DNA of 64,000 bases from a virus (IMGVR_UViG_3300037346_000220:47268-111267), one strand, 5' to 3'; shown: positions 1-60,993, counted from the first letter of the stretch. Notes: generated from the letters alone by a model not told the origin. Made by a program: numbers and translations.

Positions 1-1
1 T

Positions 2-187
2 ATAGGAACTCAATTTGCTTTTATTCAAACTGGAACTGGAAGCATTGTCTTCTCCCCTATAGAGACTAATACAACTACAATCTTAAGCAAGAACAATAAT
101 AGGAAAACAGCATCACAGATCTCTCAGGCTATTCTGGTCAAAAAAGAAGCAGACGTCTGGATGCTGATGGGCGACCTTACTGCCTAG
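2..187 (+). CDS. 3' end of a fibre/adaptor protein (truncated by the window edge) ending in the conserved 'W...GDL' domain
   Basis: Manual translation: IGTQFAFIQTGTGSIVF...RKTASQISQAILVKKEADVWMLMGDLTA*. It matches the C-termini of 5443..7293 and 9019..10704. Confidence 0.8.
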   Translation: MGTQFAFIQTGTGSIVFSPIETNTTTILSKNNNRKTASQISQAILVKKEADVWMLMGDLTA

Positions 188-195
188 GAGGCAAG

Positions 196-1011
196 ATGAT
201 AGGCATAGGCGGAAAGTTTGCATCCTCTAAAGGAATGGTCGCAGTACCTTCAATTATAGGATTGACAGTATCCCAAGCTCACATAGCAATCCAGAATTCT
301 GGACTTGAAATTGGTACTCAGGGAAGCACTAGTGGGTCCTCAAGTCAAAACGGAAAACTAGCCTCTCAAACAACGCCTTCTGGAACTCTTGTAGATTACG
401 AAAGCACCATAGGGTTTGCTGTATACCTCTATACTGCCCCAAGCGCCCCCTCAGGACCTTACCTAGTATCTACAAACACTGGTCCTAACTGTGGTACAGT
501 TCTTGCAACAGGAATCATTTCACAAACCTGTGTGGGAAACAATTATGTAACTATTGTAGGAACTCAGAACGTAACAACGTACCGCTATAATTACTCCGAT
601 GGAACCTCCTCCTCTGGATACTCAGTTTGCTTTTCAGGACAGCAAGAATCATCAGTACCCTCTCAAGCCTGTGCTGATCAAAATGCCCCACTGCCCCCAC
701 CGCCTGTCCCCTCTAACTGTACATCATGCACCAATGGAAGCTATACTTACTCGGGATCTGATTCAGGTTGTGCCTCTGGTAACGCCTGGTACAGCGTCTG
801 TATTTTTAACTCTGGCTGCCAACCAGCCTCATCAACATCTAGAAACTGTGTCCCAGTTCCACGTCCACCAGAGCCCGTAAAATGCAAATGCACGGCTGGC
901 TGTGGGGCTACCTGGAGTGGTGCCTGCACTGGCGGCACCCAAGTCCAAGCCATAAGGTGCACAGCCTGTGACTGTAGCTCATCTGTACGAAGCTGGACCA
1001 ACCCCTGCTAG
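196..1011 (+). CDS. Putative virion tip protein with a PASTA-like N-terminal domain and a Cys/Pro-rich C-terminal region (18 Cys)
   Basis: SD aggagg upstream. VPSIIGLTVSQA...QTTPSGTLV is a PASTA-like pattern. It has poly-Pro linkers and a WSGACTGGTQ segment. Confidence 0.7.
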   Translation: MIGIGGKFASSKGMVAVPSIIGLTVSQAHIAIQNSGLEIGTQGSTSGSSSQNGKLASQTTPSGTLVDYESTIGFAVYLYTAPSAPSGPYLVSTNTGPNCGTVLATGIISQTCVGNNYVTIVGTQNVTTYRYNYSDGTSSSGYSVCFSGQQESSVPSQACADQNAPLPPPPVPSNCTSCTNGSYTYSGSDSGCASGNAWYSVCIFNSGCQPASSTSRNCVPVPRPPEPVKCKCTAGCGATWSGACTGGTQVQAIRCTACDCSSSVRSWTNPC

Positions 1012-1014
1012 ATA

Positions 1015-1023
1015 TGTTATACT
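1015..1023 (+). promoter_or_regulatory. Extended -10 promoter, leaderless start
   Basis: TGtTATACT-6 nt-ATG(1030). Confidence 0.6.
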
Positions 1024-1029
1024 CTGTAT

Positions 1030-1260
1030 ATGGGTATTAGATATTTTGCATTTGTAGTGGGAGAAGATGTTTCAACAGTCTTTGCTGTAGACGACGAGCA
1101 ATCATACAATAAAGCGGTTATCGCTGGCTTGCGCTCAGGACCCGTAATCATAGAGACAGATGAGTCTCAAGTTTCTTTAGGTTGGAAGTATCGAGATGGA
1201 GAGTTTCTTCCTCCGTTTTTAGGTGATGATGAGGGGCCAGGGTACGAGATAGATGACTAA
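1030..1260 (+). CDS. Small acidic protein, putative fibre assembly/maturation factor (paralog of 11732..11965 and of the C-half of 12700..13146)
   Basis: Shares the pattern A(F/V)V(V/I)xxxV...P.(I/F)(I/V)...G..Y..G.F. ATG lies 6 nt after TATACT. Confidence 0.65.
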   Translation: MGIRYFAFVVGEDVSTVFAVDDEQSYNKAVIAGLRSGPVIIETDESQVSLGWKYRDGEFLPPFLGDDEGPGYEIDD

Positions 1261-1504
1261 TGCCTGGGACAGGTACAAAGAAAAACTAGGAGACACCAGA
1301 CCTTGGGATCTTTTAAACCCCAACACAGTTTACGCAGACAAGTCTGTTGCCCAAGAGAGATACAGCATCTGCAAGGCCTGCCCAAAACTTTTACCAACAA
1401 AGCAATGCGACGAATGTAAGTGCTTTATGAAAGTTAAGGTTACTCTTGCAGAAGCAGAATGCCCATTACATAAATGGGGTAAGTCTAACCAGGAAACTGA
1501 TTAA
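1253..1504 (+). CDS. Small Cys-rich protein (CxxC-CxxCxC-CPxxKW; resembles DUF6171)
   Basis: RYSICKAC...QCDECKCFM...ECPLHKW; paralog of 13106..13309. Confidence 0.75.
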   Translation: MTNAWDRYKEKLGDTRPWDLLNPNTVYADKSVAQERYSICKACPKLLPTKQCDECKCFMKVKVTLAEAECPLHKWGKSNQETD

Positions 1505-2072
1505 GCATAGCCTTAGCTTTTTCGCTAGTAGTCCAAGCACTCCAGGAAGAGCCTCCGTCAGAGATTACATATGCAACTCTAGAGTTTACTTCAGGGCTAA
1601 AGAGTTCTTCATTAGTTTTAAGACCATGTTGCTTGAGTCTTGCTGGACCCATGCTCCCAATCATGTTGATCTGAAAAAGACCGTAAGAGTTGTCTCCAGT
1701 ACTTGAGTTTTGGTTATGAGCATAGAGCCTGTTTGTTGATTCAAGCTTTACTACAGCCCAAGCCATCTGCAACCCTTTACCAGAAAATCCAGCGTTCTCT
1801 AAAACTGATATAAGATCTGTGTCAGACAAGACCATCTTCTGAAAATCTTCTCTAAGCCAGGGCTGGGTTGTTTTGATAGAAACCTCTAGCCTGGAAAAAC
1901 TTCTAGATTCTGATAATACTTCTATAAGGTTCATTCTGTTGCCGACAGAAAGTGTTTGTGTGATTTCTAATTCTTTAGCAAAGGCTCGTGGGGTTTCAAT
2001 TTCGTTACACTGGCTAACACCAGTCAAAATTCCTGCGACGATACCAAGGGAAACAATGGCTTTTTTCTCCAT
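1485..2072 (-). CDS. Lysozyme-like/lytic transglycosylase cell-wall hydrolase with an N-terminal signal/anchor
   Basis: AWAVVKLES (catalytic Glu), DNSYGLFQIN and WSAW motifs, plus a hydrophobic N-terminus. It has its own TGgTATAAT 8 nt upstream on the - strand. Confidence 0.8.
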   Translation of the reverse strand: MEKKAIVSLGIVAGILTGVSQCNEIETPRAFAKELEITQTLSVGNRMNLIEVLSESRSFSRLEVSIKTTQPWLREDFQKMVLSDTDLISVLENAGFSGKGLQMAWAVVKLESTNRLYAHNQNSSTGDNSYGLFQINMIGSMGPARLKQHGLKTNEELFSPEVNSRVAYVISDGGSSWSAWTTSEKAKAMLNQFPG

Positions 2073-2150
2073 AAGATAACATTATACCAGGGTTATTGTC
2101 CTAAATCAACCTTGCGATGTAATCTTAAAGTATTATGGTATACTTTTACT

Positions 2151-2525
2151 ATGGCAACCCAAAGAGGATCAACGAACTCATACGAAGTAGGAAACACTCC
2201 ACCAAAAGTATCTTGGACGGTTGTCCGTGGTGACACGGCGTCATTTCGGGTATATGTAACTGACGACAATAAGGTTTCCTTAAACATTCCCGACTGGGAC
2301 ATAAAGATGGACATAAAAAGAGCTGGGACCTTGGTTATGTCTTTGAGCCCCTCAGCAATCTTAGGAGAGGCCCCAGGAGAGTTTACGGTTTCTCTTCTGT
2401 CCTCTCAGTCAGAAATTTTAGAAACAGGAGATGTCTTCGATATACAGCTAACTTCCAACCCAGCACTCTACGTATGGACAGTTGCAAGTGGCAGCTTAGT
2501 AATCTTTGAGGATGTAACAAAATAA
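2151..2525 (+). CDS. Virion structural/adaptor protein (BppU-N-like beta-sandwich)
   Basis: WTVVRGDT...FDIQL...WTVASG pattern. Start moved to ATG 2151, 6 nt after TGgTATACT. Confidence 0.55.
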   Translation: MATQRGSTNSYEVGNTPPKVSWTVVRGDTASFRVYVTDDNKVSLNIPDWDIKMDIKRAGTLVMSLSPSAILGEAPGEFTVSLLSSQSEILETGDVFDIQLTSNPALYVWTVASGSLVIFEDVTK

Positions 2526-2830
2526 TGGCTTCATCAGCTATTCTTAAGCAAACTCAAAAAGTTGAGATGCAAACAAAGTTCTTCCCTAAAGCCACATTCC
2601 TTTCTGGTGAGTCAACATCTCTGAAGATAACAGACCTTGTCCATAACACCGAAAAAGTCCAGTCCGCACATTTTTCAAACTCAAAAGCCTTTGCTAACGA
2701 AAGAGCAGCTTTAGTATCTGAAAGACTCCCATTTCGGGTGAGAATAACCAATTTGGGAGTGGCTTATGGCCCCAGCCACCCTGCTCCCATTGGAATTGCC
2801 ATACTGGGTTTGAACAACTATATACTTTAA
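2525..2830 (+). CDS. Hypothetical virion-associated protein
   Basis: Translationally coupled (TAATG) to the upstream gene; ends APIGIAILGLNNYIL. Confidence 0.6.
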   Translation: MASSAILKQTQKVEMQTKFFPKATFLSGESTSLKITDLVHNTEKVQSAHFSNSKAFANERAALVSERLPFRVRITNLGVAYGPSHPAPIGIAILGLNNYIL

Positions 2831-2862
2831 AAACTTTAAAAAATACCCCCTATAATGTATAT

Positions 2863-3309
2863 ATGGCTAGAGTATCAATCCCTTATGTAAAGACCAGGTT
2901 CGAGACTGGCGACCGCCCAGAACAGGCGGACTATCAAGACCTGATAGACACAGCAGCAGGCCAGGCAACTGATCTGGGAACCGCTGGAAACAACGAGAAC
3001 ACTATTGCTGGTATTGAAAACATCACGGTAATTGACAGCTTTGACGCTAGTCAGTGGAGACTTGTTAAGTACTTGGTTTCAATCTCAAAGACTTCATTCG
3101 GAGACAATAAGTTTTACGCAACAGAACTTTCCATACTGGTAGACGGCACAGATATATCTGTCACAGAGTACGGAGTAATAGACAATGATGGGAATATGGG
3201 CACCATCGATGTTTCTAGAACTGGAGATACCGTTGCATTGACGGTGACCCCTGATTCAGTAATCAAGCCAGTGACCGTGCGATTTGCTCGCATGGGTCTC
3301 AAGGCCTAA
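2863..3309 (+). CDS. Fibre-associated adaptor protein ('TEYG' domain)
   Basis: WRLVKYLVSIS...ISVTEYGVI aligns with the C-terminal domain of 3327..4883 (YRTAEFVVKS...ISITEYGVV). Confidence 0.65.
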   Translation: MARVSIPYVKTRFETGDRPEQADYQDLIDTAAGQATDLGTAGNNENTIAGIENITVIDSFDASQWRLVKYLVSISKTSFGDNKFYATELSILVDGTDISVTEYGVIDNDGNMGTIDVSRTGDTVALTVTPDSVIKPVTVRFARMGLKA

Positions 3310-3326
3310 CTAGGAGATTAAAAAAA

Positions 3327-4883
3327 ATGGCAACAGTTAATAAAGATTTCAAGGTAAAAGCTGGCTTAGTCGTTGAGGGTGCCTCAGGTACCATTAATGG
3401 CTATAGCGTACTAACAGAGGCTCAGGCCAGCATAGACTTCATCGTAAACACTATTGGGGGAACAGCTACATCAACATCGACTCCAAATACTGTAGTGAAG
3501 CGTGACGAGAACTCAGACTTTTCAGCAGGAGTAATAACTGCAGACATAGTCGGAAGCCTTACTGGTGACGTAACTGGAAACTCTGATACCTCAACAGCTT
3601 TAGAGACTCCGAGGACTATCTCCGTAAGTGGCGATGCTGTCGGTTCTGTATCTTTTGATGGAACATCTGACGTATCAATTGCAATCACCTTAGACTCAGC
3701 ATTTGCTACCGATGTAGAGGTTGGTACCTCTAAGAGTGAAGCTGTAACCGAAGCTGCTTCTTACACAGACGGAGAAATTTCTACTCTAGAAGCTTCCTTG
3801 CAGTCTTATGCCGATCTAGCTCAGTCAGATGCAGAGACTTCTGCTGCCTCTTACACAGACGCTCGTGAATCAGCTATTACCTCTGCATACCAAAGCTACA
3901 CAGATACAGCAGAAGCTGATGCAAACACATATGCAGACTCTGCAATCGCAGCTCTAATCGGAGGAGCCCCAGAGCTTCTAGACACTCTTAATGAACTAGC
4001 AGAGGCTATTGCCGATGACCAAAACTTCTCAGCAACAGTAGTTAACGACATTGCAGCAGGTCTTGTAACAGCTAAGGACTACACAGACACCCGTGAAGGT
4101 CTTATCACTACAGCCTACCAGGGTTATGCAGACACTGCTGAAGCCGATGCGATCTCTACCGCAGCTTCAGATGCAACTGCTAAAGCCGACACAGCAGAGT
4201 CAGAAGCAAATAGCTACACTGACACCGAAATTGCCACAGAGGTTAGCAGTCGTAACACAGCTATTACTACAGCTGTTGACGCCCTAGATACAGACGCTAT
4301 AGAGGAAGGTTCTTCAAACTTCTATTTCACTGATGAAAGAGCTCAGGATGCTGTCGCAGCCTCCATTGCTGCTGGTTCACACCAAAACATTACTGTGACT
4401 TACGATGATGCTCTTGGCTCTCTAACTCTTGTTGCAGAAAACGGAGTAGCAGATTCTGACACGGACGATTTGGTAGAAGGTTCCACAAACTTGTACTTCT
4501 CAAGTGCACGTGCGGTGGCAGCTCTGGAAGCAGTAGTCCCTAACTTTACAGAGGTAGACCTTAACTCAGTTGCAACTCAAGTAGCTGCTACTCAAACAGT
4601 CTCTACCGCAAGTCAAGTCGTAGGATATTCCTTTAGCGGTACTTCCTACAGGACAGCAGAATTTGTAGTAAAATCTGCTTCAGGTGTGCACACAGAAGTT
4701 TCAAAGGTTCTTTTAACTTTGGACACAGCAAACAATATTTCCATTACCGAGTACGGAGTAGTAGGAACTAATGGTTCTCTATCAACTCTTTCTGCAGGTA
4801 TGGATGGGAACACGGTTCAGCTACTAGTTACAACCCTTAACAACGGCACAGATGTTACAGTTGTTGGTACACTAGTAGTATAG
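3327..4883 (+). CDS. Fibre shaft protein
   Basis: Acidic Ala/Thr-rich helical repeats (AxxYTD), an APELLDTLNELA motif, two EGSxNxYF repeats and a C-terminal TEYG domain. SD aggag. Confidence 0.75.
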   Translation: MATVNKDFKVKAGLVVEGASGTINGYSVLTEAQASIDFIVNTIGGTATSTSTPNTVVKRDENSDFSAGVITADIVGSLTGDVTGNSDTSTALETPRTISVSGDAVGSVSFDGTSDVSIAITLDSAFATDVEVGTSKSEAVTEAASYTDGEISTLEASLQSYADLAQSDAETSAASYTDARESAITSAYQSYTDTAEADANTYADSAIAALIGGAPELLDTLNELAEAIADDQNFSATVVNDIAAGLVTAKDYTDTREGLITTAYQGYADTAEADAISTAASDATAKADTAESEANSYTDTEIATEVSSRNTAITTAVDALDTDAIEEGSSNFYFTDERAQDAVAASIAAGSHQNITVTYDDALGSLTLVAENGVADSDTDDLVEGSTNLYFSSARAVAALEAVVPNFTEVDLNSVATQVAATQTVSTASQVVGYSFSGTSYRTAEFVVKSASGVHTEVSKVLLTLDTANNISITEYGVVGTNGSLSTLSAGMDGNTVQLLVTTLNNGTDVTVVGTLVV

Positions 4884-4918
4884 TTTCATACAACAATAGA
4901 GGCAGGAGGAAGCAATAG

Positions 4919-5377
4919 ATGGCGCTAAGCGAAAAAGACTTTAAGGTCAAAAATGGAATCCAGGTATCTGGAGACGCTGTAATTGGTGGAACTATAACCG
5001 CAGCATCTCCAACATTGGGCAGCCATGTTGTAACTTTGGAATATTTTACAGAGAATGCAAACTCTGGCTTTAAGGCACAATCTGTTGCTCCTGTTTCCCC
5101 TACTGATGGAGACCACTACTTCGACACTGCTACCCAGAGACTAAACGTTTTTTACGATGGCTCCTGGATAACTATGGCCTCAGTAGAAGATACCCAGAAT
5201 ATCCCACAACACATTCACGACACTTCGATTGACGGTTCTGGGCTAATAGTTTCAAGATTTACAGATGCAGCATCCCCCACCAGTCCACAGGGAGCACCAG
5301 TGGATGGCGGAGGAGTTTCAACCACATCATGGGATTCAGTACTTGACGGTGGCTCAGTTTTAGATAACTTCAATTAG
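4919..5377 (+). CDS. Fibre linker protein
   Basis: N-terminal KDFKVKxG shared with 3327, a PxSPxxGDxYFD motif, and C-terminal tandem DGG motifs. Confidence 0.65.
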   Translation: MALSEKDFKVKNGIQVSGDAVIGGTITAASPTLGSHVVTLEYFTENANSGFKAQSVAPVSPTDGDHYFDTATQRLNVFYDGSWITMASVEDTQNIPQHIHDTSIDGSGLIVSRFTDAASPTSPQGAPVDGGGVSTTSWDSVLDGGSVLDNFN

Positions 5378-5388
5378 CCTAAAAAAGT

Positions 5389-5397
5389 TGGTATAAT
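5389..5397 (+). promoter_or_regulatory. Extended -10 promoter for the fibre at 5443
   Basis: Intergenic TGgTATAAT. Confidence 0.6.
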
Positions 5398-5442
5398 AGT
5401 AAAAGGCTTAAACGTGACACCCTAAAAGTAGGAGAATGGACT

Positions 5443-7293
5443 ATGGCAACAAGGATGCAACAGAGGCGTGGTACCGCAGCAGAGTGGACCAGCATTAACC
5501 CAGTTTTAGCTGGCGGAGAGATCGGCTATGAGTCAGACACTGGCCGTTTCAAAATGGGCGATGGAACAAACAATTGGGAGAACCTGTACACTTACGGCTC
5601 TATAGACTCAATTCTTGACGCAGCCCCAGAAACTCTTAATACTCTAAATGAGCTGGCAGCAGCTATAAATGACGACCCCAGCTTCTACACAAATGTCGGT
5701 CTAGCAGTCTCAACCGCAAAGACCGAAGCTATATCTGAAGCAGGAACATATGCAGACCTCCTTATTGGAGATGGAACTGTCGACGGAACATCTGGAAATA
5801 CAGTAACAGCCAGAATTCAATCTGCGATCAGTGACCTTGTTGGTGATGCACCTGGAGCACTAGACACTCTAAACGAGCTCGCAGCAGCACTTGGCGATGA
5901 CTCAAACTATGCAGCAACCATAACACAGATTGTCTCTAACATCCAGCAAAGCGTAATTGACGCAACAACGTCTCTTAACGAAGGTATAGCCCTTGCCAGA
6001 ACAGATCTGGGAGCAGATATTGACTCTGGAATCGCAGATGAAGTAACAAACAGAGACAGTGCAATCTCAGCAGCTGTAGACCTGGAGGCAACTGCCAGAG
6101 GCTTAGCCATCGCAGCAGATAGCTCAGACACCCTAGATGCGTACACTTTGGCAGTAGCTGCCGAGGCAACGGCTAGAGAAGCAGCAATCACCGACCTAGG
6201 CACAACGATAACTACAGCATATCAGGACTACGCCGATACAGCCGAATCTGATGCAATTGCGACCTCTTCGACAGACGCAAGCAGCAAAGCAGATGACGCA
6301 CAATCAGCTGCAGAGCTAACAGCTTCAATAGCTTTGACGTCTCACAATGACGCTACTACGTCTGTGCACGGTATTGCAGACACCTCGGTGCTTGCCACAA
6401 AAACAGACGTGAGTACGGCACAGACAAATGCTGAGAGTTATGCAGATGGCCTTTCAGGTAACTATGATGCAGTAGGTTCAGCTTCTACAGCTCAGGATGC
6501 AGCAGAGTCTACTGCAGCCTTAGCTCTGACAGCGCATAATGACGATACTACCTCGGTGCACGGAATTGTGGATACCTCAAAACTAGTTCTTACAGAGGCT
6601 GCAAGTCAGACAATCACTGGAGACTTTATTGTTACTGGAGATCTGACTGTTTCGGGAACGACAACCACAATCGATACTGCAAATTTTGAAACAACTGACC
6701 CTTTGATTGCACTTGGAGAAGGAAACGTTACAAATGCAGTTGACCTTGGTTTTGTCTCAACATTCAATGACGGAGTCCAGCAAATAACTGGTTTCGCCAG
6801 AGATGCGTCCTCTGATACTTGGAAGTTGTTTAAGGGAGTTACTGACGTTCCAACTACAACTATTAACTTCGCCCAGGGATCCTTGGATGACCTATCAGTT
6901 AAAGATTTGTCTGCTGCTGTCGTAAATGCTGCTTCTGTGGTATTTGCAGACGGAACAACTCAAACTGTAGCAGCAGTGCCTTCCCTGACAGTATTCTCAG
7001 AAAAGACTGCTAGTTACACTCTAGACACCATCGACCACAAGGACAACTTGGTTGAGGTAAACTCTGGTAGTGCAACTACATTTACTATCCCAACGAACGC
7101 CTCTTTGGCCTGGCCAGTAGGAGCTTCAATGGATATTCTTCAGACTGGCTCTGGTCAGGTAACTATTTCCCCAGCAAGCGGAGTAACTCTAAACTTTACT
7201 CCTGGAAATAAGTTACGCACTCAGTGGTCATCTGCTACAATACTTAAAAGGTCTGCAGACTCATGGGTTGTCTACGGCGACCTAACAGCTTAA
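5443..7293 (+). CDS. Fibre protein with an Mtd_N-like N-terminal domain and a C-terminal 'W...GDL' domain
   Basis: MQQRRGTAAEW...LAGGEIGYESDTGRFKMGDG (Mtd_N-like), two APxxLxTLNELA motifs and two HNDxTTSVHGIxDTS repeats; ends WVVYGDLTA. Confidence 0.8.
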   Translation: MATRMQQRRGTAAEWTSINPVLAGGEIGYESDTGRFKMGDGTNNWENLYTYGSIDSILDAAPETLNTLNELAAAINDDPSFYTNVGLAVSTAKTEAISEAGTYADLLIGDGTVDGTSGNTVTARIQSAISDLVGDAPGALDTLNELAAALGDDSNYAATITQIVSNIQQSVIDATTSLNEGIALARTDLGADIDSGIADEVTNRDSAISAAVDLEATARGLAIAADSSDTLDAYTLAVAAEATAREAAITDLGTTITTAYQDYADTAESDAIATSSTDASSKADDAQSAAELTASIALTSHNDATTSVHGIADTSVLATKTDVSTAQTNAESYADGLSGNYDAVGSASTAQDAAESTAALALTAHNDDTTSVHGIVDTSKLVLTEAASQTITGDFIVTGDLTVSGTTTTIDTANFETTDPLIALGEGNVTNAVDLGFVSTFNDGVQQITGFARDASSDTWKLFKGVTDVPTTTINFAQGSLDDLSVKDLSAAVVNAASVVFADGTTQTVAAVPSLTVFSEKTASYTLDTIDHKDNLVEVNSGSATTFTIPTNASLAWPVGASMDILQTGSGQVTISPASGVTLNFTPGNKLRTQWSSATILKRSADSWVVYGDLTA

Positions 7294-7315
7294 TAACTAG
7301 GAGAAGAGAAAAGAC

Positions 7316-8107
7316 ATGGCAAAAAAAGAAGCAGGCGGTAGGTCAGCATCACAGAATGACTTCCTGGAGCCACTAACACCAGTAAGCGTAACAGCTTCCA
7401 ATGTCGGCACAAGCCGAGTATACAACGACGGAGCTGCCACAGTTTCATTTTCACTTCCAGCTAACTCACCAGCTGCAACTTCTTATTTAGTTACAGCCTC
7501 TACTGGACAAACGGGGACTGGATCTTCATCTCCAGTAACGGTAGAAGGGCTGGGTTCTTCCAGCACTCCAACTTTTACAGTTGTAGCTTCTAACGCATCT
7601 GGCGACTCAGGTTCCTCATCCGCTACAACGGCTATTACAATAACCACAGTTCCAGCAACCATGGCAGCACCATCCGTTAGCACTCCAACTCCTTCATCAA
7701 GCACAAACCAAACAGGAACATCTACAGACTCAGTATCCTGGAGTGCACCAAACAATGGTGGATCCTCAATAACCACTTATCGCTGGACATCCTCTGATGG
7801 AAAGACGGGGACAGAAGCTGGAACATCTGTGTCAGTAAGCCAAGAGGGTGGCTCTGCTCAAACATATTCTGTTCGTGCAGAGAACTCTAACGGATCTGGA
7901 TCTTACTCAAACAACTCTTCAAGCATAACCACTTTTGGATTTACTCCATTTAGTTTTGCTCCTTTTGGGTTTACACCATTTAGCTTTACTCCATTTAGCT
8001 TTACCCCCTTTGGAGCTTTTGGGTTTACCCCCTTTGGAGCTTTTGGGTTTACCCCGTTTAACTTTGCTCCTTTCGGATTCGCTCCATTTAACTTTTCACC
8101 CAGGTAA
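7316..8107 (+). CDS. Putative tip protein with two fibronectin-III-like domains and a 57-aa F-x-P-F repeat tail
   Basis: VSWSAPNNGGSSITTY...YSVRAENSNGSG is an Fn3 signature. The C-terminal tail has ten F[TAS]P motifs. Confidence 0.8.
   Translation: MAKKEAGGRSASQNDFLEPLTPVSVTASNVGTSRVYNDGAATVSFSLPANSPAATSYLVTASTGQTGTGSSSPVTVEGLGSSSTPTFTVVASNASGDSGSSSATTAITITTVPATMAAPSVSTPTPSSSTNQTGTSTDSVSWSAPNNGGSSITTYRWTSSDGKTGTEAGTSVSVSQEGGSAQTYSVRAENSNGSGSYSNNSSSITTFGFTPFSFAPFGFTPFSFTPFSFTPFGAFGFTPFGAFGFTPFNFAPFGFAPFNFSPR
7934..8104 (+). repeat. Coding tandem repeat with a 15-nt unit (F-[T/A/S]-P-F-[S/G/N]), including an exact 24-nt duplication
   Basis: Units such as tttactccatttagc vary at synonymous positions. 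tttaccccctttggagcttttggg occurs at 8000-8023 and 8024-8047. Confidence 0.95.
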
Positions 8108-8118
8108 TTCCACCTGTG

Positions 8119-8127
8119 TGATATAAT
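8119..8127 (+). promoter_or_regulatory. Extended -10 promoter for the oxygenase at 8154
   Basis: Intergenic TGTGaTATAAT. Confidence 0.6.
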
Positions 8128-8153
8128 TATTAAATAGAGAAGGGGTCTTACCG

Positions 8154-8825
8154 ATGCAACCTGAAAAAGCCATGCCACAACCAATGCAAAGCCATTCTAA
8201 GTCAACTCAGCCACACAAGTTCTTTGAGTCATTTCTAGACAATGACTTGGAGTCTTTAGCAAATGAGTTACAGGCCAGGTACCAGCTAATTGAAAACGTT
8301 GAGATTAGAGGTGTCACTCCTGTCACCGAAGCAGATGGTTGGATAGACTCTGGCAGTGTTTCAACTATGAAGTGGCAACAATACAACGTCTTCCAGTTTA
8401 ACATTCCTGGTGTTCATAACCTTTACAAGGCCTTGTCTGAGATGGTTCACGAAGCCTGTAATTACTATGGAATAGATTTTGAGTCACAGAAATTTGTAGT
8501 CCAAGGCTGGTTCAATATTAACCACACAAAGACTGGGAAGCTAGATTGGCACGACCATGGCCCTGGAGGGGCCCCTCTATTTCACGGATACTATTCCGTA
8601 GCAGCAGAGCCTTCTGAGACACACTATATCGTAACGAACCAGGAAAAAAGAATTAATCATAATGTCAACAATCGTGCAATCTTGTCAGAGATGGCCCACC
8701 CACATGCTATGGCAGATTGGTCTTGGGAAGGCCCAAGAATAACAATCGCATATGATGTTCTTCCTATGGAGCACCTAATACCAGGAGGACCAGGCCAGGA
8801 GCAACATTGGATACCTCTAATCTAA
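8154..8825 (+). CDS. Putative 2OG-Fe(II) oxygenase (HxH...H type, TIGR02466/PF13759-like)
   Basis: WFNIN...LDWHDH...FHGYYSV...HPHAM...RITIAYDV; paralog of 60228..60962. Confidence 0.75.
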   Translation: MQPEKAMPQPMQSHSKSTQPHKFFESFLDNDLESLANELQARYQLIENVEIRGVTPVTEADGWIDSGSVSTMKWQQYNVFQFNIPGVHNLYKALSEMVHEACNYYGIDFESQKFVVQGWFNINHTKTGKLDWHDHGPGGAPLFHGYYSVAAEPSETHYIVTNQEKRINHNVNNRAILSEMAHPHAMADWSWEGPRITIAYDVLPMEHLIPGGPGQEQHWIPLI

Positions 8826-8962
8826 AAAAGATTTTATGCTTTATGGGAAAGCACGATATAGTCATAGCTACATGCCCATTCACTAAAGCAGAAGCCAAGT
8901 CCTGTACCAGGTGTGACTTTGGAGACTCTCACAAAAAAGACAGTGGCATGTCCTTTAGCTAA
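8807..8962 (+). CDS. Small Cys/His putative zinc-binding protein, 51 aa (absent from the ORF track)
   Basis: SD aggag plus TTG start: MDTSNLKKILCFMGKHDIVIATCPFTKAEAKSCTRCDFGDSHKKDSGMSFS. It fills the gap between genes. Confidence 0.6.
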   Translation: MDTSNLKKILCFMGKHDIVIATCPFTKAEAKSCTRCDFGDSHKKDSGMSFS

Positions 8963-9018
8963 TAAAACAATGTTATACTTAACTATCCTGGTATTTTTAT
9001 GCCAGATAGGAGATCATA

Positions 9019-10704
9019 TTGCTAATTAGGCTTCAACAAAGAAGAGGTACAGACACTCAGTGGTCTTCCTCAGACCCCGTTCTTGCTGCTGGAGAGATTG
9101 CCCTATCTACCGATGACCAAACATTCAGGATGGGTGATGGAGTAACGGCTTGGTCCTTGTTGCCATATTTTCAGAATGCAGCAGACATAGAAGTAATCCG
9201 ATTAGCCGTCTTGGCAAACGCAAACTCCTATTCTGACACAGAGCTTGATGCAGCTATCTTATCAACTGAGAGTACCCTCTCACAAGCCATCAGCGACTCA
9301 GAGACGGCAGCAAACACTTACACGGATACCGAGATAGCCTCTCTAATTGATTCAGCACCAGAAACTCTAAACACTCTTAAAGAAATAGCAGAAGCCATTG
9401 CTGAGAACGACGGAGACATCGGCACAATTCTTGCAGCTTTAGATACAAAAGCTGCAACCGACCACACGCATACCCTCTCCGACCTAACAAATGTAGACCC
9501 CTCAGGAGCTAATTTAAACGATGTTCTGTTTTTCGACGACTCCGATCAAACCTGGAAGCCAAAAGAACTTATAGGCATCGATGCCATAACTGTAACTACT
9601 GGAGTCCCCACAGGAGCAGGAGAGCTATCCTATAATTCCAACACAGGGGCTTTCAGTTTTGCTCCAGCCATAACTGGAGTTACAGCAGGATCTTTTGGGG
9701 TATTGAATAGCACAACCACGTTTGCTGCATCCACAGGATCTGTATATACTTATTGGGATGGAGCAAAGAAACTAGAAGTGTCCATAACTACGACTTCTAG
9801 TTACGTAAACCTAATAAGCCTGACCAGCGACCACTTCGGCTCGTCCTCGGTAAAGCTTGTTCGGGTGGTTGACTCTGTAGAGACAGATCTCTTCACTTGG
9901 CCAATCTTAGGTACTAGGGACTTTGGCTGGACGTACTACGATCAGCATAATCTAGACGTAGGGACAGTAGTTACCTATAGAATTAAGGGACAGGCGTCAT
10001 CAGGTACCTCGTACATTGGTCAAAACGCTGATGTTCAAATGCATGTTCAAGAAGTAGCTGGGGCTTTGGGAGGACAGCCTACAAGCCCAGACATATCCGT
10101 AGCCGTTGAGGGTACTGGAAGCACCACTGGTGGCTTGGCTTACGACGACGGACTTCTTACTTACACCCCAGTGCTTCCTGCAGCAGCAGCACTATCAGAA
10201 TTAACTGACGTAGATTTAACTGGATTGTCAGACACGGATGTCTTAGCTTATGATCTAGCCTCTGGAACTTGGTTACCAGGTTCTGCAGCATCATCTGTAG
10301 CCCAACTTTCCGACGTAGACCTAACAGGCATGATTGATAAATCCCTGTTGCAGTACTCTTCTTCATCGGATAAGTGGGAAGCTACGTCTATAGACATAGC
10401 TCCAAGTCTTGTAGCTTTTAACCCCAGGTACGGACCCTACACTTTTGAGATCACAGACAAAGACAAGATGGTAGAATGTACATCGGAGGTTACCTTCACG
10501 GTACCCAACAACTCTTCAGTAGCCTTTCCAATTGGATCAACGATAACTGTTATGCAGAAAGGTTCTGGTCAAATTACTATTGTGGGAGCTTCTGGGGTGT
10601 CTCTGAACTTCACCCCTAGCAACAAAACAAGGACCCAGTACTCTTCAGCAACTCTAGTAAAGAGAGATACGAATGTCTGGTACTTGATGGGGGACCTAGA
10701 GTAA
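9019..10704 (+). CDS. Second Mtd_N-like fibre protein with a C-terminal 'W...GDL' domain
   Basis: LQQRRGTDTQW...LAAGEI...FRMGDG, APETLNTLKEIA and LSxLxDVD repeats; ends WYLMGDLE. Confidence 0.8.
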   Translation: MLIRLQQRRGTDTQWSSSDPVLAAGEIALSTDDQTFRMGDGVTAWSLLPYFQNAADIEVIRLAVLANANSYSDTELDAAILSTESTLSQAISDSETAANTYTDTEIASLIDSAPETLNTLKEIAEAIAENDGDIGTILAALDTKAATDHTHTLSDLTNVDPSGANLNDVLFFDDSDQTWKPKELIGIDAITVTTGVPTGAGELSYNSNTGAFSFAPAITGVTAGSFGVLNSTTTFAASTGSVYTYWDGAKKLEVSITTTSSYVNLISLTSDHFGSSSVKLVRVVDSVETDLFTWPILGTRDFGWTYYDQHNLDVGTVVTYRIKGQASSGTSYIGQNADVQMHVQEVAGALGGQPTSPDISVAVEGTGSTTGGLAYDDGLLTYTPVLPAAAALSELTDVDLTGLSDTDVLAYDLASGTWLPGSAASSVAQLSDVDLTGMIDKSLLQYSSSSDKWEATSIDIAPSLVAFNPRYGPYTFEITDKDKMVECTSEVTFTVPNNSSVAFPIGSTITVMQKGSGQITIVGASGVSLNFTPSNKTRTQYSSATLVKRDTNVWYLMGDLE

Positions 10705-10705
10705 T

Positions 10706-11731
10706 ATGGGCATAAAAGCAATCTTGCGAGCAGGACAACAATCTCTTTTGAAAGAGGTTAGCCTAAACTTAAGCTCTGAACCAGACCTCTCTATTGACGC
10801 AAGCCTTGTCAACAACTCTTTAAGCTCAACAACAAGAACAAATGCTAGAGGATCCACGTGGAGTTTTACTAGAGGTACCTGGGGGATTCTGTCAGGAAAG
10901 CTAAAAGCATCTAATCCCTCAAGTTATCCCATTGCCGTAGTTGACGCATTAGTCCCAAACGTAGAAATAAATATTAAAGATATTGGACAGGGCTCTGGAA
11001 CCGCTCTTTGGTATACGGACAGCGATAACTGGTGGGGTGTCGGAGTGTATCAAGACTCTGAGAATTGTAACTGTACAACCTCATACTATAGCTGCAACTG
11101 TACTGCATACAGCTACTGTACAGGTGGCTATACAACCTGCAATTCTGGCAGTGAACAACCTAATGGCACTTGGGCTCAACACTATAGCTATCAGACGTGC
11201 GGCCCAGCTTATGTCTTTAACTACTGCTCTTCTTATGGGACTATTAACTATAATTACACCTATGGGTACACTAATACAGGCTGTACGGGGTACTCCCAAG
11301 GTAGTAACGCCGTTTGTACAACTCATCAAAATACTGTGATACATCAAAACTACGCATTTGTTTGTAACTCTTCGACCTATACTTGCAATCAGTGGGCTGG
11401 GGGCTCAAGCTGCTCAATATGTGCCTCAACAAGTTGCCAAACTTGCTACCCAGCGTATGTTAGAATGGTAAGGTCAGCATCAGCTACAGTTTCCACGTTG
11501 GCAACGTATGCAATTGATTATGTGGCAAGGTCTCTAAGAGTTTTCGTAAAAGACAAGCAAGTTACCATCCAACCATTTTCTGACGCAGCTGGGAATACAT
11601 CTATTGGAAGCGAGATAATCTATGATGCGTCAGCAGCGACAGAGACTACAAAATTTGGAATTCTGATTTCACCTTCATCTTACGATGAGCAAGGATCCAT
11701 ACAAGATATATCTATCAAAAGGAGATACTAA
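10706..11731 (+). CDS. Putative tip protein: beta-rich domain interrupted by a 16-Cys Tyr/Thr/Ser-rich insert
   Basis: All 16 Cys lie between DNWWGVGVYQ and AYVRMVRS. It directly follows a GDL-ending fibre. Confidence 0.7.
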   Translation: MGIKAILRAGQQSLLKEVSLNLSSEPDLSIDASLVNNSLSSTTRTNARGSTWSFTRGTWGILSGKLKASNPSSYPIAVVDALVPNVEINIKDIGQGSGTALWYTDSDNWWGVGVYQDSENCNCTTSYYSCNCTAYSYCTGGYTTCNSGSEQPNGTWAQHYSYQTCGPAYVFNYCSSYGTINYNYTYGYTNTGCTGYSQGSNAVCTTHQNTVIHQNYAFVCNSSTYTCNQWAGGSSCSICASTSCQTCYPAYVRMVRSASATVSTLATYAIDYVARSLRVFVKDKQVTIQPFSDAAGNTSIGSEIIYDASAATETTKFGILISPSSYDEQGSIQDISIKRRY

Positions 11732-11965
11732 ATGTCATTACCAGACATCCCAGCAATATCAGAGATAAACTCAGGCCGATACCCATTTAACATTGCCGTA
11801 GTGATTGACAATGTCGTGTACTCAGTCTTAAACCTACCAGGTTCCCAGGCAGCGCTTTACGCCGCTCAGCCAACATTTGTCCAGGTTGACTTTAATCAGG
11901 TTGTTACAGGTTCGGTCTATAACCCTGCCGATGGAACATTTACTGACCCAGAAGTAAACGAATAG
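11732..11965 (+). CDS. Small acidic protein, paralog of 1030..1260
   Basis: IAVVIDNVV...QPTFVQV...GSVYNPADGTFTDP. Confidence 0.65.
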   Translation: MSLPDIPAISEINSGRYPFNIAVVIDNVVYSVLNLPGSQAALYAAQPTFVQVDFNQVVTGSVYNPADGTFTDPEVNE

Positions 11966-12010
11966 GGGGCTAACTCGACAAACCCCCATGGGGTTTAGAT
12001 TGGACAAAAT

Positions 12011-12700
12011 GTGAAGCTTATTAGGTTTACCTCGCATAAAGATTATGAATCATCTGGACAACCTGTCCCAGCAAAGAAGACCGTGCCCCAATGGTTTAAG
12101 GATGCAGAAGTTACCTTTACCGTACCAGGGTCTAAAACTCCTATGTCAGGGTTAAAGAAATGTATACCTTACCTTGATGTTCTGACCTCAGGGTATATGC
12201 TTGTAACTCCAGCTGACATCTATATCTCTCAAAATAAGTCTGGCGATGGCATTGACGTCAAATGGGACGAGTCTCCCTCAGGAAGCTTTATAGATGAGAG
12301 GCCAAAAGAGCTTGGAGCAACAATGCCAAGACCAGAGGGCTTTGCTCCTAATCACATGGTTTGGGTAGGTCGCTGGGGTTGGAAAGTCCCTAGGGGTTAC
12401 AGTGTCCTCGTAACACACCCTTTTAATAGGTTAGATCTGCCATTCCATACTCAGTCTGCTATTATCGATAGTGATAGTTTTTTTGCCCCAGGAAACATCC
12501 CCTTCTTCATAAATAAAAGCTTCTCTGGGAAGATACCAAAAGGGACTCCTTTTGCACAGCTGCTGCCAATTAAGCGTGACAGTTGGAAGATGGTAAAAAA
12601 TGATCAGGCCTTGCTAGAAATTGCAGATCTCCAGGGGCACGTCGTCCGATCTGATGCCCCGTACAGAATGATATCTTGGTTTAGAAAGAAGTATGACTAA
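12011..12700 (+). CDS. Uncharacterised protein with dUTPase/dCTP-deaminase-like fold motifs
   Basis: PQWFK, KKCIPYLDVLTSGY, SAIIDSD (like dUTPase motif 3) and IPKGTPFAQL (like motif 4); paralog of 63120..63842. Confidence 0.6.
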   Translation: MKLIRFTSHKDYESSGQPVPAKKTVPQWFKDAEVTFTVPGSKTPMSGLKKCIPYLDVLTSGYMLVTPADIYISQNKSGDGIDVKWDESPSGSFIDERPKELGATMPRPEGFAPNHMVWVGRWGWKVPRGYSVLVTHPFNRLDLPFHTQSAIIDSDSFFAPGNIPFFINKSFSGKIPKGTPFAQLLPIKRDSWKMVKNDQALLEIADLQGHVVRSDAPYRMISWFRKKYD

Positions 12701-13146
12701 TGACTAAAAAAAGCAAAAATGTAAACAAGGACGGAATTAGGAAGCCAGTTCCTGCCATCGTAAACTTGGAAGCAGCTAGGTTCGTAAAGATCTCTACAGC
12801 CCAGCTAATAAAGATATGGCTAAGAAAAAAGATTATAGGAGAATCAGACATTGCTGGTAAGATTCATGAGCTAGAGCATAAGGCTCTAATGAAGGAGCAG
12901 ACAGAAGACCCGTCTTACAACCCCACCCCCACTTCGGTCAAGGCTTACCACCTAGCTGTAGTCGTTGAGGGCAACGTCGTAGAGATAATGAGGGCTTCAG
13001 ACGGTATGACAGAGATTCTGCTAATGTCCCCAGACTTTATAGTTTACCTTCCAAAAGAGACTGACGTCAAGATTGGAATGGAGTATAAGAACGGAGACTT
13101 TGTAGATGTCGCAGAAGAATTTGCCAAAGATACCACCACTGAATAA
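12700..13146 (+). CDS. Protein whose C-terminal domain is paralogous to 1030..1260
   Basis: LAVVVEGNVV...SPDFIV...VKIGMEYKNGDF. Confidence 0.65.
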   Translation: MTKKSKNVNKDGIRKPVPAIVNLEAARFVKISTAQLIKIWLRKKIIGESDIAGKIHELEHKALMKEQTEDPSYNPTPTSVKAYHLAVVVEGNVVEIMRASDGMTEILLMSPDFIVYLPKETDVKIGMEYKNGDFVDVAEEFAKDTTTE

Positions 13147-13309
13147 ACCTCAAGTTGCTATAAGCAAAGAAACAAGAGAGGCCAGGTATGACACTTGTAA
13201 GTCCTGTAAGTTTTTTATGAAGATAAACAGTGTGTGTAAACTATGCGGTTGTGATATGGAACAAAAGACTCACGTTCAAGAAGCTACCTGCCCAGCTGGT
13301 AAATGGTAA
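13106..13309 (+). CDS. Small Cys-rich protein (DUF6171-like)
   Basis: RYDTCKSC...VCKLCGCDM...TCPAGKW. Confidence 0.75.
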   Translation: MSQKNLPKIPPLNKPQVAISKETREARYDTCKSCKFFMKINSVCKLCGCDMEQKTHVQEATCPAGKW

Positions 13310-13325
13310 AAAAAATAGTTTATTA

Positions 13326-13334
13326 TGCTAAAAT
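13326..13334 (+). promoter_or_regulatory. Extended -10 promoter, leaderless start
   Basis: TGcTAAAAT-6 nt-ATG(13341). Confidence 0.6.
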
Positions 13335-13340
13335 AGAAAC

Positions 13341-16300
13341 ATGTCTCAACCATCGAATCTTTATGCAGAAAAGATATTTGCAGAACACCCCATAGCTCTC
13401 TGGGCCCTAGAAGAGCAGGTAGACTATCTATCATTAGTCTCTGATCCCCAAAGAGACTTCTCCCAATGGCAGCCAGTAAATTCTGAAGTCTTGTCACCAG
13501 ATAGTTCAGCCCTAGACTATCCAGCTCCTTACCCACTTTCACCCTTGGGTCTAATGTCGTTAACGACAAGCACCTCTGGGTTCACGTCCTTTGGCGCAGC
13601 GTCCCCCCTGGCATATCCAGTTATGGTTGATTCGTTTTCTTCTACGAAGGACACCTTCTGCATAGGCATTCATCTTCTAGCGGTCAGTCAAACAGTGCTC
13701 TCTATTTCAGTAGGGTACACTTATGTAGACTCAGAGACAGGCCTGCCCGTTACCAAGGCAACGTCCTTTCCAGTATCGTCAAACACTAACTGGTCTTTCA
13801 TATCAGAAACCTTTTCCGTTTCAGAAATAAACTCAGAGTCGTTCTACCCCTCAATCTCTGTAGTCTCGGCCCACCCAGAATCAATTACAGGTCCAATAAC
13901 TCACCTAGTCTATGTCAATGGTCTTACCGTAGGGCAAAACTCAGAAGAGTTCAACTACGGGTCATTAGGAATTTCTCCATCTGGTCAAGAAGAAAATATC
14001 TTTGGTGTAGAACCCAGCGACATCCTAGTTCCGTCCGATCAGTATGGGATAGTAGGGAGAAAAGCTTACTATGTCGTAAAAGGCGGAAACAATCTAGTCT
14101 CTCAGAACTCAGGGATGCCTCTTGTTTATGGCGCTCAGAATGCTACAGTCATGACAAATTCTCAGGGAACCCCCAACCTACTGATACCAGGATATGGGTT
14201 TATGAATGATTCAGGAAGAAACAAGGAGTACACTTTTGAAATGTGGTTTAGACCAAACTCTTTTGCAACATCTTCCACTAGAATTTTTGGACCAGTAGCC
14301 TCAAATGACGGGATCTACATAGATGGAGCATTCTTAAGGTTAAAGCTAGGAGGTTCTATAGCATCACACTATGTAGGCGATTCCTTCAGGCCTATGCTCG
14401 TAAACATTAAAACTCTAAAAGACTCAGCTTCCTTGCTTATTAACGGAGAGTCGGTAGCAACTATAACGTTTGATTCAGCCACCATTCCTCTACCAGCTCC
14501 TAAACTTGATGGAAAGAATCAAGACTTTTTAGCATTCTATACTTCAGACGCTGTTCCTCAGATTGATGTAGACTGCGTGGCCATCTACTCATACTCAGTT
14601 CCTTCCTTAGTAGCTAAAAGGCGAATGGCCTACGGCCAAGCTGTAGAGTTTCCAGAAAACGTAAACACGGCATACAGTGGGACAACGGCGTACTTCGATT
14701 ATAACTTTGCAGATTACACAAACAATTATTCATACCCAAATATCGGAAGATGGTATCAGGGAATTTCAGACAACCTTGTTTTTGACAATGATGTCCTCTC
14801 AACGCCAAGCTATGGGCTCCCACAGCTAGTTATGCAGGATGAGACAACTTATAAGAATTGGGTTTCTGAAAACTCTGATAATCAGGTGGTAGACGAAGAC
14901 CTGTTCTTCAGCTTTAGCTCACCTGGCTACCTGTACTTTGAAAAACTTAGAATGCTTACTCAAGATACCAGGGCTATCTATATGGTTTTTGAAACCTCAG
15001 GATACTCAGAGAACAAGCAGGTATTGCTTAGAGTTGAAGACAACTTGACAACCAACAACTTCGAGGTATCTGTTACTGGATCAGATGTGTCTTACACCCT
15101 AAACTACCAAGGGGTAGAGACTTCCCTATACACGGAGTCAGACCTGATAGCAAACACAAAAGCCTTTGCAGGGATAGACATAGACGGTTTGGCAAAGTAT
15201 TTCGGAAGAACCTTTACTGCATTCTTTGGTAACAAGTCACGCCTCAGTGTTTATGTTGGATCAGACAAAGACTTTGAGAGCCCATTCTCAGGAAAGATTT
15301 ACTCTATAAATTTCTGTACCAACAAAAACTTTCAGAAGGTCTCAGCCTTTTTCCAAGATCCAGAGATCATTAGCACAGACTTTGTTGCTGACGCAGGAGA
15401 TAACTACTTTGGCACTGACGCATCGACATGGTTCAGAACCTTTGACGGAGGCTTTGTAGATTCTTTTAGCCTAGATGGAGCAGCTAGCCACATAGCGAGT
15501 TATAGCCTAAGAGCTAAAAGCATTTTTGATAATTACTCTATAGACATCCTAGCAGATTCTTATTGGGAAGATTACATTCCCCTAAAGCATTTTGCACAGT
15601 ATGTCACCAACAGTGACTCAGGATCTTATTATGACTTGGATTTTTTGCAGTTTAACGTGGGATACCCAGCAATTAGAAAGTTCTTAGCTGGAAGTTTTGA
15701 TACGTCTAATAGCTCCGTAAAGAGTTATATAACTTTTCAGTACTTAGCTACAGGAGCGACAGCGCAACCAGGATACTTTACAGAGACCATGAGCGCACCA
15801 CAGAGCGGTATTGTAGAGCCTGGAGATAACTGGATGACAACAAGGTACGAGGTTGTCAATGGTTCGATCATCTACCTTCCAAAGAACATAGACTTTTTAG
15901 ACATAGCTTTGGTGACAAGCTTAGAGATAGTTTCCCAGGGCATCAGTTTAGATAAGATAAAGATAAAAAGCCTAGAGTATGCATCTCAGGCTTTTAATGG
16001 AGACACCTCAAACCCTATTGGTACTCGGTTTGGTCTCCCTGTGTTTCCCTACAGAAAATACAACCTTTACTACGACTATAAGACTAGGAACCCATACAAG
16101 ATATACAAGAGGGGCTCTCCTTATCTTTACTTGACGTCAGACAGCGGAATCAAAAAGGTGGGAGAGCAAGAGAGGGTCACAGACAGAGGGCTTTCAATAC
16201 CAGTTAACTTAAACCTATCAGAAAAGTATAGGGTGGTATCTATGCAAATGGCAATGAGGTTTGACGAAGAATCTTTCCCCGACAAGGTCAGAGTATTTGA

Positions 16301-16895: not shown

Positions 16896-17264
16896 ATGGA
16901 AGAGAATAATAACGGGCAAATTGGTAAATCAAAGATTACAGTCTTAAACAAGGACTACCCCTGGGGTATTTATTTTTGGAAGAAAGCAAACGGGAAGCCT
17001 TATACAGACGGCCACGGAAGTGTTTTAAACATTCCTTCACACAAAGGTGACGTTCTTCAGCTTCAGAAGCTAACAAACGAAGCGACAGCCCTAGGCCATG
17101 GTGATGGATCTTACGAGTTTATAGCAGGTGCTGGCCGAGTTTCAGAAGAAGAGTATTCTGAGCAGGTAGATCGAATGAAGCAAGGACTCCTTCCAAACCT
17201 TAATGACTTAGGAGCTGTCCAAGCAGCCAAAGACACCATATCTCTTTATGGAGATGAGGAATAA
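16896..17264 (+). CDS. Hypothetical protein upstream of the portal
   Basis: ATG lies 7 nt after TGgTATACT. It is coupled to the portal gene by TAATG. Confidence 0.65.
   Translation: MEENNNGQIGKSKITVLNKDYPWGIYFWKKANGKPYTDGHGSVLNIPSHKGDVLQLQKLTNEATALGHGDGSYEFIAGAGRVSEEEYSEQVDRMKQGLLPNLNDLGAVQAAKDTISLYGDEE

Positions 17265-56675: not shown

Positions 56676-56686
<11 letters not shown>
56282..56686 (+). CDS. nrdI: Class Ib RNR flavodoxin NrdI
   Basis: [18 protein letters not shown] and [10 protein letters not shown]. Confidence 0.93.
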
Positions 56687-59790
<3,104 letters not shown>

Positions 59791-60962: not shown

Positions 60963-60987
60963 CAGATCTGATCTCTTAAGGTATACT
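60959..60987 (+). promoter_or_regulatory. sigmaA-type promoter for a leaderless gene
   Basis: TTGACA-17 nt-TATACT-6 nt-ATG. Confidence 0.75.
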
Positions 60988-60993
60988 CTAGAT

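Follow-up and report, generated by a model that had tools for sequence, protein, structure and literature searches.

Bases 47268-111267 of the 111,267-bp IMG/VR virus record IMGVR_UViG_3300037346_000220, a record with direct terminal repeats, make up the 64,000-nucleotide (nt) stretch analysed here (the window). They come from an uncultured salt-lake phage of roughly 111 kb, and at their start three tail-fibre genes, whose products share a C-terminal domain that we call GDL, are each followed by a gene for a tip protein with unusual cargo and then by one or more small 'helper' genes. We read these genes as three modular receptor-binding fibre-tip appendages with putative dedicated accessory factors matched to the cargo of each tip, and we give this reading a probability of about 0.6. 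That helper type tracks cargo type is supported across hundreds of phage contigs, and in one of the three cassettes the tip and its helpers are swapped together between strains. The parts of the reading differ in strength: the fibre and tip modules are almost certainly real, and a functional tie between the helpers and their own tip is probable. An earlier note made from this DNA alone had proposed the three cassettes; the open reading frames are used as it listed them. Positions are those of the window unless prefixed G000 (coordinates of the whole virus record), and L-numbers denote related loci, of which L004 belongs to the same record, its positions cited here lying upstream of the window.

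Three fibres share a C-terminal domain and are each followed by a tip gene

The whole genome contains exactly three copies of the GDL domain. With window 6901-7290 as query, the copy in fibre 3 (9019-10704) was retrieved at 50% identity (E 1e-30) and the copy ending at 187 at 38% identity (E 1e-15), so that the common domain first noticed in the sequence alone is now borne out by search. Both long fibres begin with Mtd_N (PF18454; 41.4 and 37.4 bits, over the gathering cut-off of 26.3) and match many tail-fibre PHROGs, while the gene of fibre 1 encodes 211 amino acids (aa), its start lying before the window, at G000 46819. Relatives of the domain are encoded by 586 or more IMG/VR stretches. 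Among cultured phages it forms the C-terminus of annotated 'minor tail proteins' in 274 records, of which 223 are from Gordonia phages; the Gordonia phages have a small overlapping gene after the GDL-ended one, as in Toast, where a 144-aa gene overlaps its end. A GDL-domain profile had no significant match among PDB sequences.

Three related loci (L095, L121 and L126) each encode a single chain in which the GDL domain is fused, through a linker rich in Pro, to a Cys-rich knob. Because of this Rosetta-stone evidence, the separate tip is best seen as a distal continuation of the fibre, and we propose that the GDL domain at the fibre end would carry the product of the next gene as its distal tip. 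Variation also affects the fibre 2 shaft itself: 16 nt of it (window 5735-5752) are replaced by 160 nt in other salt-lake runs, and its length varies, the fibre of the relative L191 having 664 aa vs 616 aa here.

The tips are multidomain proteins of 263-341 aa, each of which joins a conserved N-terminal part to hypervariable distal cargo (Table 1). The cargo described in the earlier note was largely recovered. The PASTA domain (PF03793) of tip 1 scored 27.2 bits against a gathering cut-off of 23.2, and the 18 Cys lie C-terminal to it. The 16 Cys of tip 3 sit in an insert relative to a Cys-free orthologue in L008. For tip 2, the FxP-type tail stands, being encoded by 15/24/30-nt tandem DNA repeats (7932-8059), and the Fn3 assignment (PF00041) stays under the cut-off of 25 in this phage (20.5 bits) and exceeds it in orthologues (32.5 and 51.6 bits).

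Several relatives of tip 2 (L235:2298-3569, L231:3171-4913, L239, L256 and L263) carry a Hint/intein-like domain right after the aromatic repeat tail, with a Cys at +1 after '...F-R' and 'SHN' at the domain end; Pfam Intein_splicing scores 25-27 bits on these domains, under its cut-off. Self-cleavage would leave an '...F-R' end, as found in many Hint-less tails, and the tail of this phage ends in NFSPR.

Table 1. Fibre, tip and helper features of the three cassettes (window positions)
Feature	Coordinates	Strand	Basis or remark
Fibre 1, C-terminal GDL domain	2..187	+	GDL search; phrog_8780 C-terminus
Tip 1: conserved N-terminus and PASTA, Pro linkers, C-terminal array of 18 Cys with a Cys at its end	196..1011	+	Pfam, orthologues
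Small helper family protein (small_1030)	1030..1260	+	overlaps DUF6171 gene 1253 by 8 nt
DUF6171 six-Cys protein, tip-adjacent subtype, N-terminal motif W-x-x-Y-K-x-K-L-G-x-T-R-P-W-D	1253..1504	+	
Fibre 2: Mtd_N, coiled/repeat shaft, GDL domain	5443..7293	+	Pfam, PHROG, GDL search
Tip 2: conserved N-terminus and two Fn3-like domains; FxFxP aromatic repeats form the tail, the last 57 aa	7316..8107	+	Pfam, orthologues
Protein with predicted, divergent 2-oxoglutarate (2OG)-oxygenase fold	8154..8825	+	AlphaFold2 (AF2) model; invariant H133, H135, H184, R195, T197
Fibre 3: Mtd_N, shaft, GDL domain	9019..10704	+	Pfam, PHROG, GDL search
Tip 3: conserved scaffold, hypervariable insert of ~130 aa with 16 Cys	10706..11731	+	orthologue comparison
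77-aa protein, marginal small-family member (E 5e-3)	11732..11965	+	position conserved in L191, L194
DUF6065-like protein, dUTPase-like fold, invariant Cys (C51)	12011..12700	+	VIA-align, Foldseek
Small-family domain (residues 64-136) with N-terminal extension	12700..13146	+	overlaps 13106 by 41 nt
DUF6171 six-Cys protein, divergent copy	13106..13309	+	Pfam
Exchanged block: tip 3 and four helpers	10731..13340	+	salt-lake contigs, L191

Helper type tracks cargo type across related phages

Cargo and helpers were compared in three locus sets of 80 members each, built around the GDL domain, DUF6171 and the oxygenase-fold protein encoded at 8154. A recurrent order emerged from the DUF6171-centred loci: a GDL fibre, a Cys- and/or Pro-rich tip, a small-family protein, DUF6171 and often PF13640 oxygenases, with a dUTPase-fold protein, a GT61 gene or a radical-SAM/SPASM gene sometimes next. 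After dereplication at 60% identity, 55 IMG/VR loci were left, and in 44 of them (80%) the tip upstream of DUF6171 has at least six Cys, vs 8% of 827 background genes. The tip ends no more than three residues from a Cys in 43 of 48 cases, and the Cys count is even in 43 of the 48 complete tips, a bias also seen among background genes with at least four Cys (104 of 138). A Pro-rich repeat in the tip predicts that the genes downstream include a PF13640-like one (34/5/3/13; odds ratio 29, Fisher p 2e-6); when the comparison was restricted to branch-disjoint pairs on the weakly supported DUF6171 tree, eight pairs agreed, one was opposite and three were ties (p 0.04). Approached from the fibre side, the GDL-centred loci have DUF6171 behind 5 of 8 tips with at least six Cys vs 3 of 64 others (p 2e-4). 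The earlier idea that cargo type predicts helper type across phage genomes is supported by these counts as well as by orthologue contrasts.

The contrasts between orthologues are the cleanest evidence for a cargo-helper tie. Tip 1 orthologues have the N-terminus and PASTA domain in common; those of L009 and L027 end in Cys-free FG-type repeats and are followed by neither the small protein nor DUF6171. Behind the Cys-free tip 3 orthologue in L008, the dUTPase-fold gene is kept, and the small protein and DUF6171 are absent. Tip 2 orthologues with FxFxP, FGVFGF or Tyr-Asn tails precede an orthologue of 8154, and those with PPFF tails precede a PF13640-like gene. The non-redundant neighbours of 8154 orthologues number 62: all Fn3 tips in this set contain an aromatic repeat region, and the other neighbours belong to an oxygenase island corresponding to the 8154 paralogue at window 60228.

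Two further observations concern the same neighbourhoods. In this phage the oxygenase island spans the record ends (window 60228-63842 and G000 1-5314), contains one paralogue each of 8154 and 12011 plus a pair of PF13640 genes, and adjoins the ribonucleotide reductase genes (window 56676-59790). In some relatives the slot behind DUF6171 is taken by radical-SAM/SPASM or GT61 genes (L038:11002-12006; L113, L114; L011:9515-10408; L107, L112), the former in L038 and L113/L114 only; scanning this genome and the first 80 loci for a radical-SAM motif found L038 alone.

Tip 3 and its helpers are exchanged as one block

Over 5443-10731 the window is about 98% identical to contigs of three further salt-lake runs, in which 10731-12310 is then replaced by 1506 other letters. 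Compared protein by protein, the IMG/VR relative L191 shows a like pattern. On the left flank its fibre 2, tip 2, 8154 and fibre 3 proteins are 96%, 99%, 100% and 98% identical to ours; inside the block, identity falls to 48% for tip 3, 42% for 11732, 53% for 12011, 36% for 12700 and 47% for DUF6171 (13106); the next large protein, encoded at window 13341-16877, is again 98% identical and marks the right border. The block measures about 2.6 kb, and its left breakpoint lies 25 nt inside the tip 3 gene. Since identity is 36-53% inside and 96-100% in the flanks, we conclude that tip 3 and its four helpers form one exchange unit between co-occurring strains, and the suggestion that tips and helpers are swappable modules therefore holds at strain level for cassette 3.

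The DUF6171 and small-family helpers

DUF6171 (PF19668) was recognised in 1253 and 13106 just over its cut-off of 27 (27.2 and 30.9 bits). Both follow the pattern CxxC...CxxCxC...CP, and the six Cys are invariant in 30 sequences. The second family is harder to delimit. Searched against this genome, a 46-sequence small-family profile found 1030 (E 7e-18), 12700 (E 2e-5) and 11732 (E 5e-3), with the next match at E 2; the link between 1030 and 12700 exists at profile level only (E 2e-5 to 3e-5), and pairwise BLAST among the three gave no match for any pair. Pfam searches at E 10 and NCBIfam searches with the small proteins were likewise negative. The claim that the same two small families stand behind both Cys-rich tips thus holds for DUF6171, holds at profile level for 1030 and 12700, and is marginal for 11732.

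In most related loci the small-family protein sits between the tip and DUF6171, and because their genes overlap, the two proteins may act as a pair. That this pair acts on the Cys knob is, in our estimate, an even bet: it would serve the Cys-rich knobs by assisting their folding, metal loading or disulfide formation before release.

A DUF6171 profile found no significant relative of known structure among PDB sequences. Profile searches with GDL, 8154 and DUF6171 had raised a match to the NSE1 RING-like PDB entry, which weakened from E 0.009 to E 0.27 with the 30-sequence profile and was dropped, and a BsaP match in the family searches (E 0.07) was far under its cut-off. Bacterial genomes yielded only 23 DUF6171 relatives, mostly on short contigs of metagenome-assembled genomes, and these were uninformative. 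In the cultured Synechococcus phage S-IOM18 (L167, HQ317383.1), a stretch behind fibre genes (4669-6928) encodes a 9-Cys protein, a CPQC thioredoxin-like protein and DUF6171, together with an oxygenase-like protein with an H-N-D-H motif; this phage is a possible experimental model.

The oxygenase-fold and dUTPase-fold helpers

The AF2 model of 8154 (pLDDT 83, pTM 0.84) has a double-stranded beta-helix fold. Its best Foldseek matches were 3bvc, 2rg4, PHD2 and the P. putida prolyl 4-hydroxylase (P4H), at E 1e-5 to 1e-3 and TM about 0.6. The invariant residues H133-D134-H135, H184 and R195-x-T197 fall on the strands expected for the iron and 2OG sites. An 8154 profile had no significant match among PDB sequences. 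The description of this gene as a 2OG-Fe(II) oxygenase behind a Pro/Phe tip therefore survives as a predicted fold; the motif is HxH, not HxD, and no curated sequence model matches. A role for 8154 in serving the aromatic repeat tail, presumably by hydroxylation, can be proposed, and covalent modification of the tail is a possible but tentative step. In relatives, PF13640 prolyl-hydroxylase-like enzymes accompany PPFF and PT-type Pro repeats instead.

Cassette 3 contains an additional helper gene, 12011, which the earlier note had not mentioned. The top 22 VIA-align matches of its product were all dUTPase or dCTP deaminase chains, except herpesvirus UL82/pp71 and ORF10, with Z up to 9.3, and Foldseek agreed on the dUTPase jelly-roll fold; the protein is not an oxygenase. 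It has no Pfam match at E 10 (PF19541 included) and no NCBIfam match; the DUF6065 label is an Atlas lead only, carried by 12-23% of cluster members. With its dUTPase fold, and present also behind Cys-free orthologues, 12011 breaks the earlier expectation that all cassette 3 helpers would match those of cassette 1.

Genomic setting and probable host

The fibre module starts upstream of the window with three collagen-like G-X-Y repeat proteins of 346, 72 and 240 aa (L004:4813-6854). Within it, on the opposite strand and convergent with cassette 1, lies an SLT_3 lysozyme-like gene (window 1485-2072, minus strand); relatives have a lysin at this place, for example a gene in L008 that looks NlpC/P60-like by eye. 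Between cassette 3 and the portal, window 13341-16877 encodes a conserved 1178-aa protein with a weak Laminin_G_3 match. The portal itself (window 17264-18865) is 47% identical to Streptomyces phage portals, and the genome encodes WhiB, a PASTA domain and a ribonucleotide reductase large subunit with an RNR_N domain, which is of class Ib type; because of this combination, the host is probably an actinobacterium. DNA of this phage recurs in salt-lake metagenomes from 2017 to 2021, and no RNA run was listed among the sequencing runs that contain it. A megablast search with a 13.4-kb query found no match among cultured phages, and a promoter and terminator scan found sites no more numerous than in shuffled sequence.

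Discussion

We favour the view that the three cassettes encode fibre tips accompanied by their own accessory factors. A number of observations weigh against it. Helper families also occur away from tips: 8154 and 12011 have paralogues (window 60228 and 63120) at a distance of 47 kb, close to the genes for ribonucleotide reductase, this genome contains three PF13640 genes in other regions, and a third DUF6171 copy of another subtype (G000 40614-40850, minus strand, equal to L004:2615-2851, minus strand) is not tip-adjacent and lies downstream of a 296-aa gene without family match, a pair also present in L005 and L007. Short DUF6171 copies stand inside oxygenase arrays of relatives. The loci counted come from phages that are related to one another, and the DUF6171 tree has weak resolution; just two independent pairs fall on its supported branches, so that the stricter test is underpowered. 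Single loci deviate: the L007 tip (6 Cys) has the small protein but lacks DUF6171, the L053 tip (4 Cys) has neither, and tip 1 carries Pro linkers yet has no adjacent hydroxylase. Finally, 8154 has His where the canonical HxD motif has Asp at the +2 position, it has no Pfam or NCBIfam match even at E 10 (PF13640, PF03171 and PF13759 included), and its orthologues also follow Pro-free Tyr-Asn repeat tails (L012, L195), which makes prolyl hydroxylation unlikely as its reaction. The dependence of helpers on cargo type, as the earlier note had framed it, is thus carried by the statistics and qualified by the helper copies outside the tip context.

These stray copies are what one would expect if the helpers were passengers of a recombination hot spot, in a fibre region that tolerates insertions, and acted on host molecules or small metabolites. 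Both this genome and its relatives do have arrays of the same families at a distance from fibres, and DUF6171 has a non-structural context in Synechococcus phage S-CBWM1. Iyer et al. 2010 (PMC2938197) described tandem dioxygenase arrays of cyanophage Syn9 that include a dUTPase-fold protein with a conserved Cys; they read such phage arrays as pathways of secondary-metabolite synthesis, and it was only for bacterial operons that they proposed collagen-like or tail-collar proteins to be hydroxylated. The enzyme families are the same as here, classical 2OG dioxygenases and a dUTPase-fold protein (12011, with its invariant C51), but the genes studied here are tied to fibre tips and swapped with them. 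We consider the passenger explanation unlikely, as it accounts neither for the double dissociation, in which DUF6171 and the small protein accompany Cys tips and PF13640 genes accompany Pro repeats, nor for the loss of helpers in Cys-free orthologues at the same position, nor for the joint divergence of helpers and tip inside one exchanged block.

Alternatively, the helpers could be non-enzymatic assembly chaperones or extra structural subunits, with the oxygenase fold dead or co-opted and no covalent tailoring. Their place right behind the fibre and tip genes and their overlapping starts are typical of fibre chaperones, and the canonical Asp is missing from 8154. In the Atlas, the named clusters closest to the small family are N-terminal domains of tail-fibre assembly proteins, with weak scores of 0.76-0.78; none of 26 small-family members matches the Caudo_TAP or Caudo_TAP_N models at E 1, and the assignment as a tail-fibre assembly protein was not retained. 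The chaperone account also sits poorly with the invariant His, Arg and Thr at the canonical metal and 2OG positions of 8154, and with the genuine PF13640 oxygenases, the GT61 genes and the radical-SAM/SPASM genes that relatives have in this slot; we judge it decidedly unlikely. That the tips are instead released or secreted Cys-rich or repeat peptides (effectors, or bacteriocin-like ribosomally synthesised and post-translationally modified peptides, RiPPs) matured by neighbouring genes is very improbable: radical-SAM/SPASM adjoins DUF6171 in L038 and L113/L114 and Hint-type self-cleaving domains follow repeat tails in relatives, but the GDL fusions, the Fn3, PASTA and Ig-like domains, the position in a fibre module and the missing leader or signal peptide pattern all speak against it. 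The RiPP comparison made in the earlier note amounts to a loose analogy: there is no leader or core peptide, the tips are multidomain and fibre-linked, and radical-SAM/SPASM genes occur in few related loci.

The arrangement of a tip with its own factors has partial precedents. In T-even phages such as T2 and S16, gp38 sits on gp37, and lambda, Mu and P2 have Tfa, the adhesin or chaperone being encoded by a separate gene directly behind the fibre gene; gp38-type adhesins combine a conserved attachment part with hypervariable receptor-contact segments. The tips described here resemble them in having their own gene behind the fibre gene and a conserved N-terminus with hypervariable cargo. They differ in showing no sequence relation and in bearing Cys knobs or repeat tails accompanied by zinc-finger-like and oxygenase-fold genes. 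In poxviruses, the small viral CxxC proteins of the E10R-A2.5L-G4L pathway allow disulfide-rich virion proteins to form in the reducing cytoplasm. By analogy, DUF6171 might have such a role, but there is no homology and it may simply bind zinc. Mycobacteriophage virion glycosylation, reportedly the subject of work by Freeman et al. in 2023, is said to involve glycosyltransferases acting on capsid and tail-tube proteins. There too, actinophage enzymes modify the phage's own virion proteins, as we propose here from genes alone, but no oxygenases, DUF6171 or fibre tips take part.

Prolyl-hydroxylase-like and other 2OG oxygenase genes are among the commonest 'auxiliary' genes of aquatic viromes. 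Their use to the virus has been called 'cryptic' in a 2022 virome paper (PMC9301287), which cites Eriksson et al. 1999 on the prolyl 4-hydroxylase of chlorovirus PBCV-1 and on viral repeats rich in Pro. That system likewise consists of a 2OG oxygenase and repeat peptides, its candidate substrates, both encoded by the virus, but it belongs to a eukaryotic virus and has no known fibre-tip link, whereas 8154 is not a PF13640 protein, has HxH, and accompanies tails that can be Pro-free. We found no publication describing a tip-helper cassette system and no paper naming DUF6171 or DUF6065. New here are the double dissociation between Cys and Pro cargo, the GDL-knob fusions, the HxH clade with aromatic tails and the strain-level block swap.

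More speculatively, and in its full form somewhat improbably, aquatic phages might run a modular tip-tailoring system. The DUF6171/small-protein pair would mature knobs rich in disulfides or metal in the cytoplasm, PF13640 enzymes would hydroxylate Pro repeats, the HxH clade would do so for aromatic FG-like tails, Hint domains would activate the tail C-terminus in relatives, and tip and enzymes would be exchanged as a host-range cassette. Virions would then display enzyme-tailored peptides.

This locus and its relatives supply candidate substrates, the repeat tails and Cys knobs, for the oxygenase and zinc-finger-like genes of aquatic phages, and they give a first context to two uncharacterised families, DUF6171 and the small family. 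If our reading is true, the structures with which phages recognise their hosts are chemically tailored by the phages themselves, and a tip and its enzymes are swapped together as a single host-range module, which would bear on host-range prediction and on the design of stable binding scaffolds.

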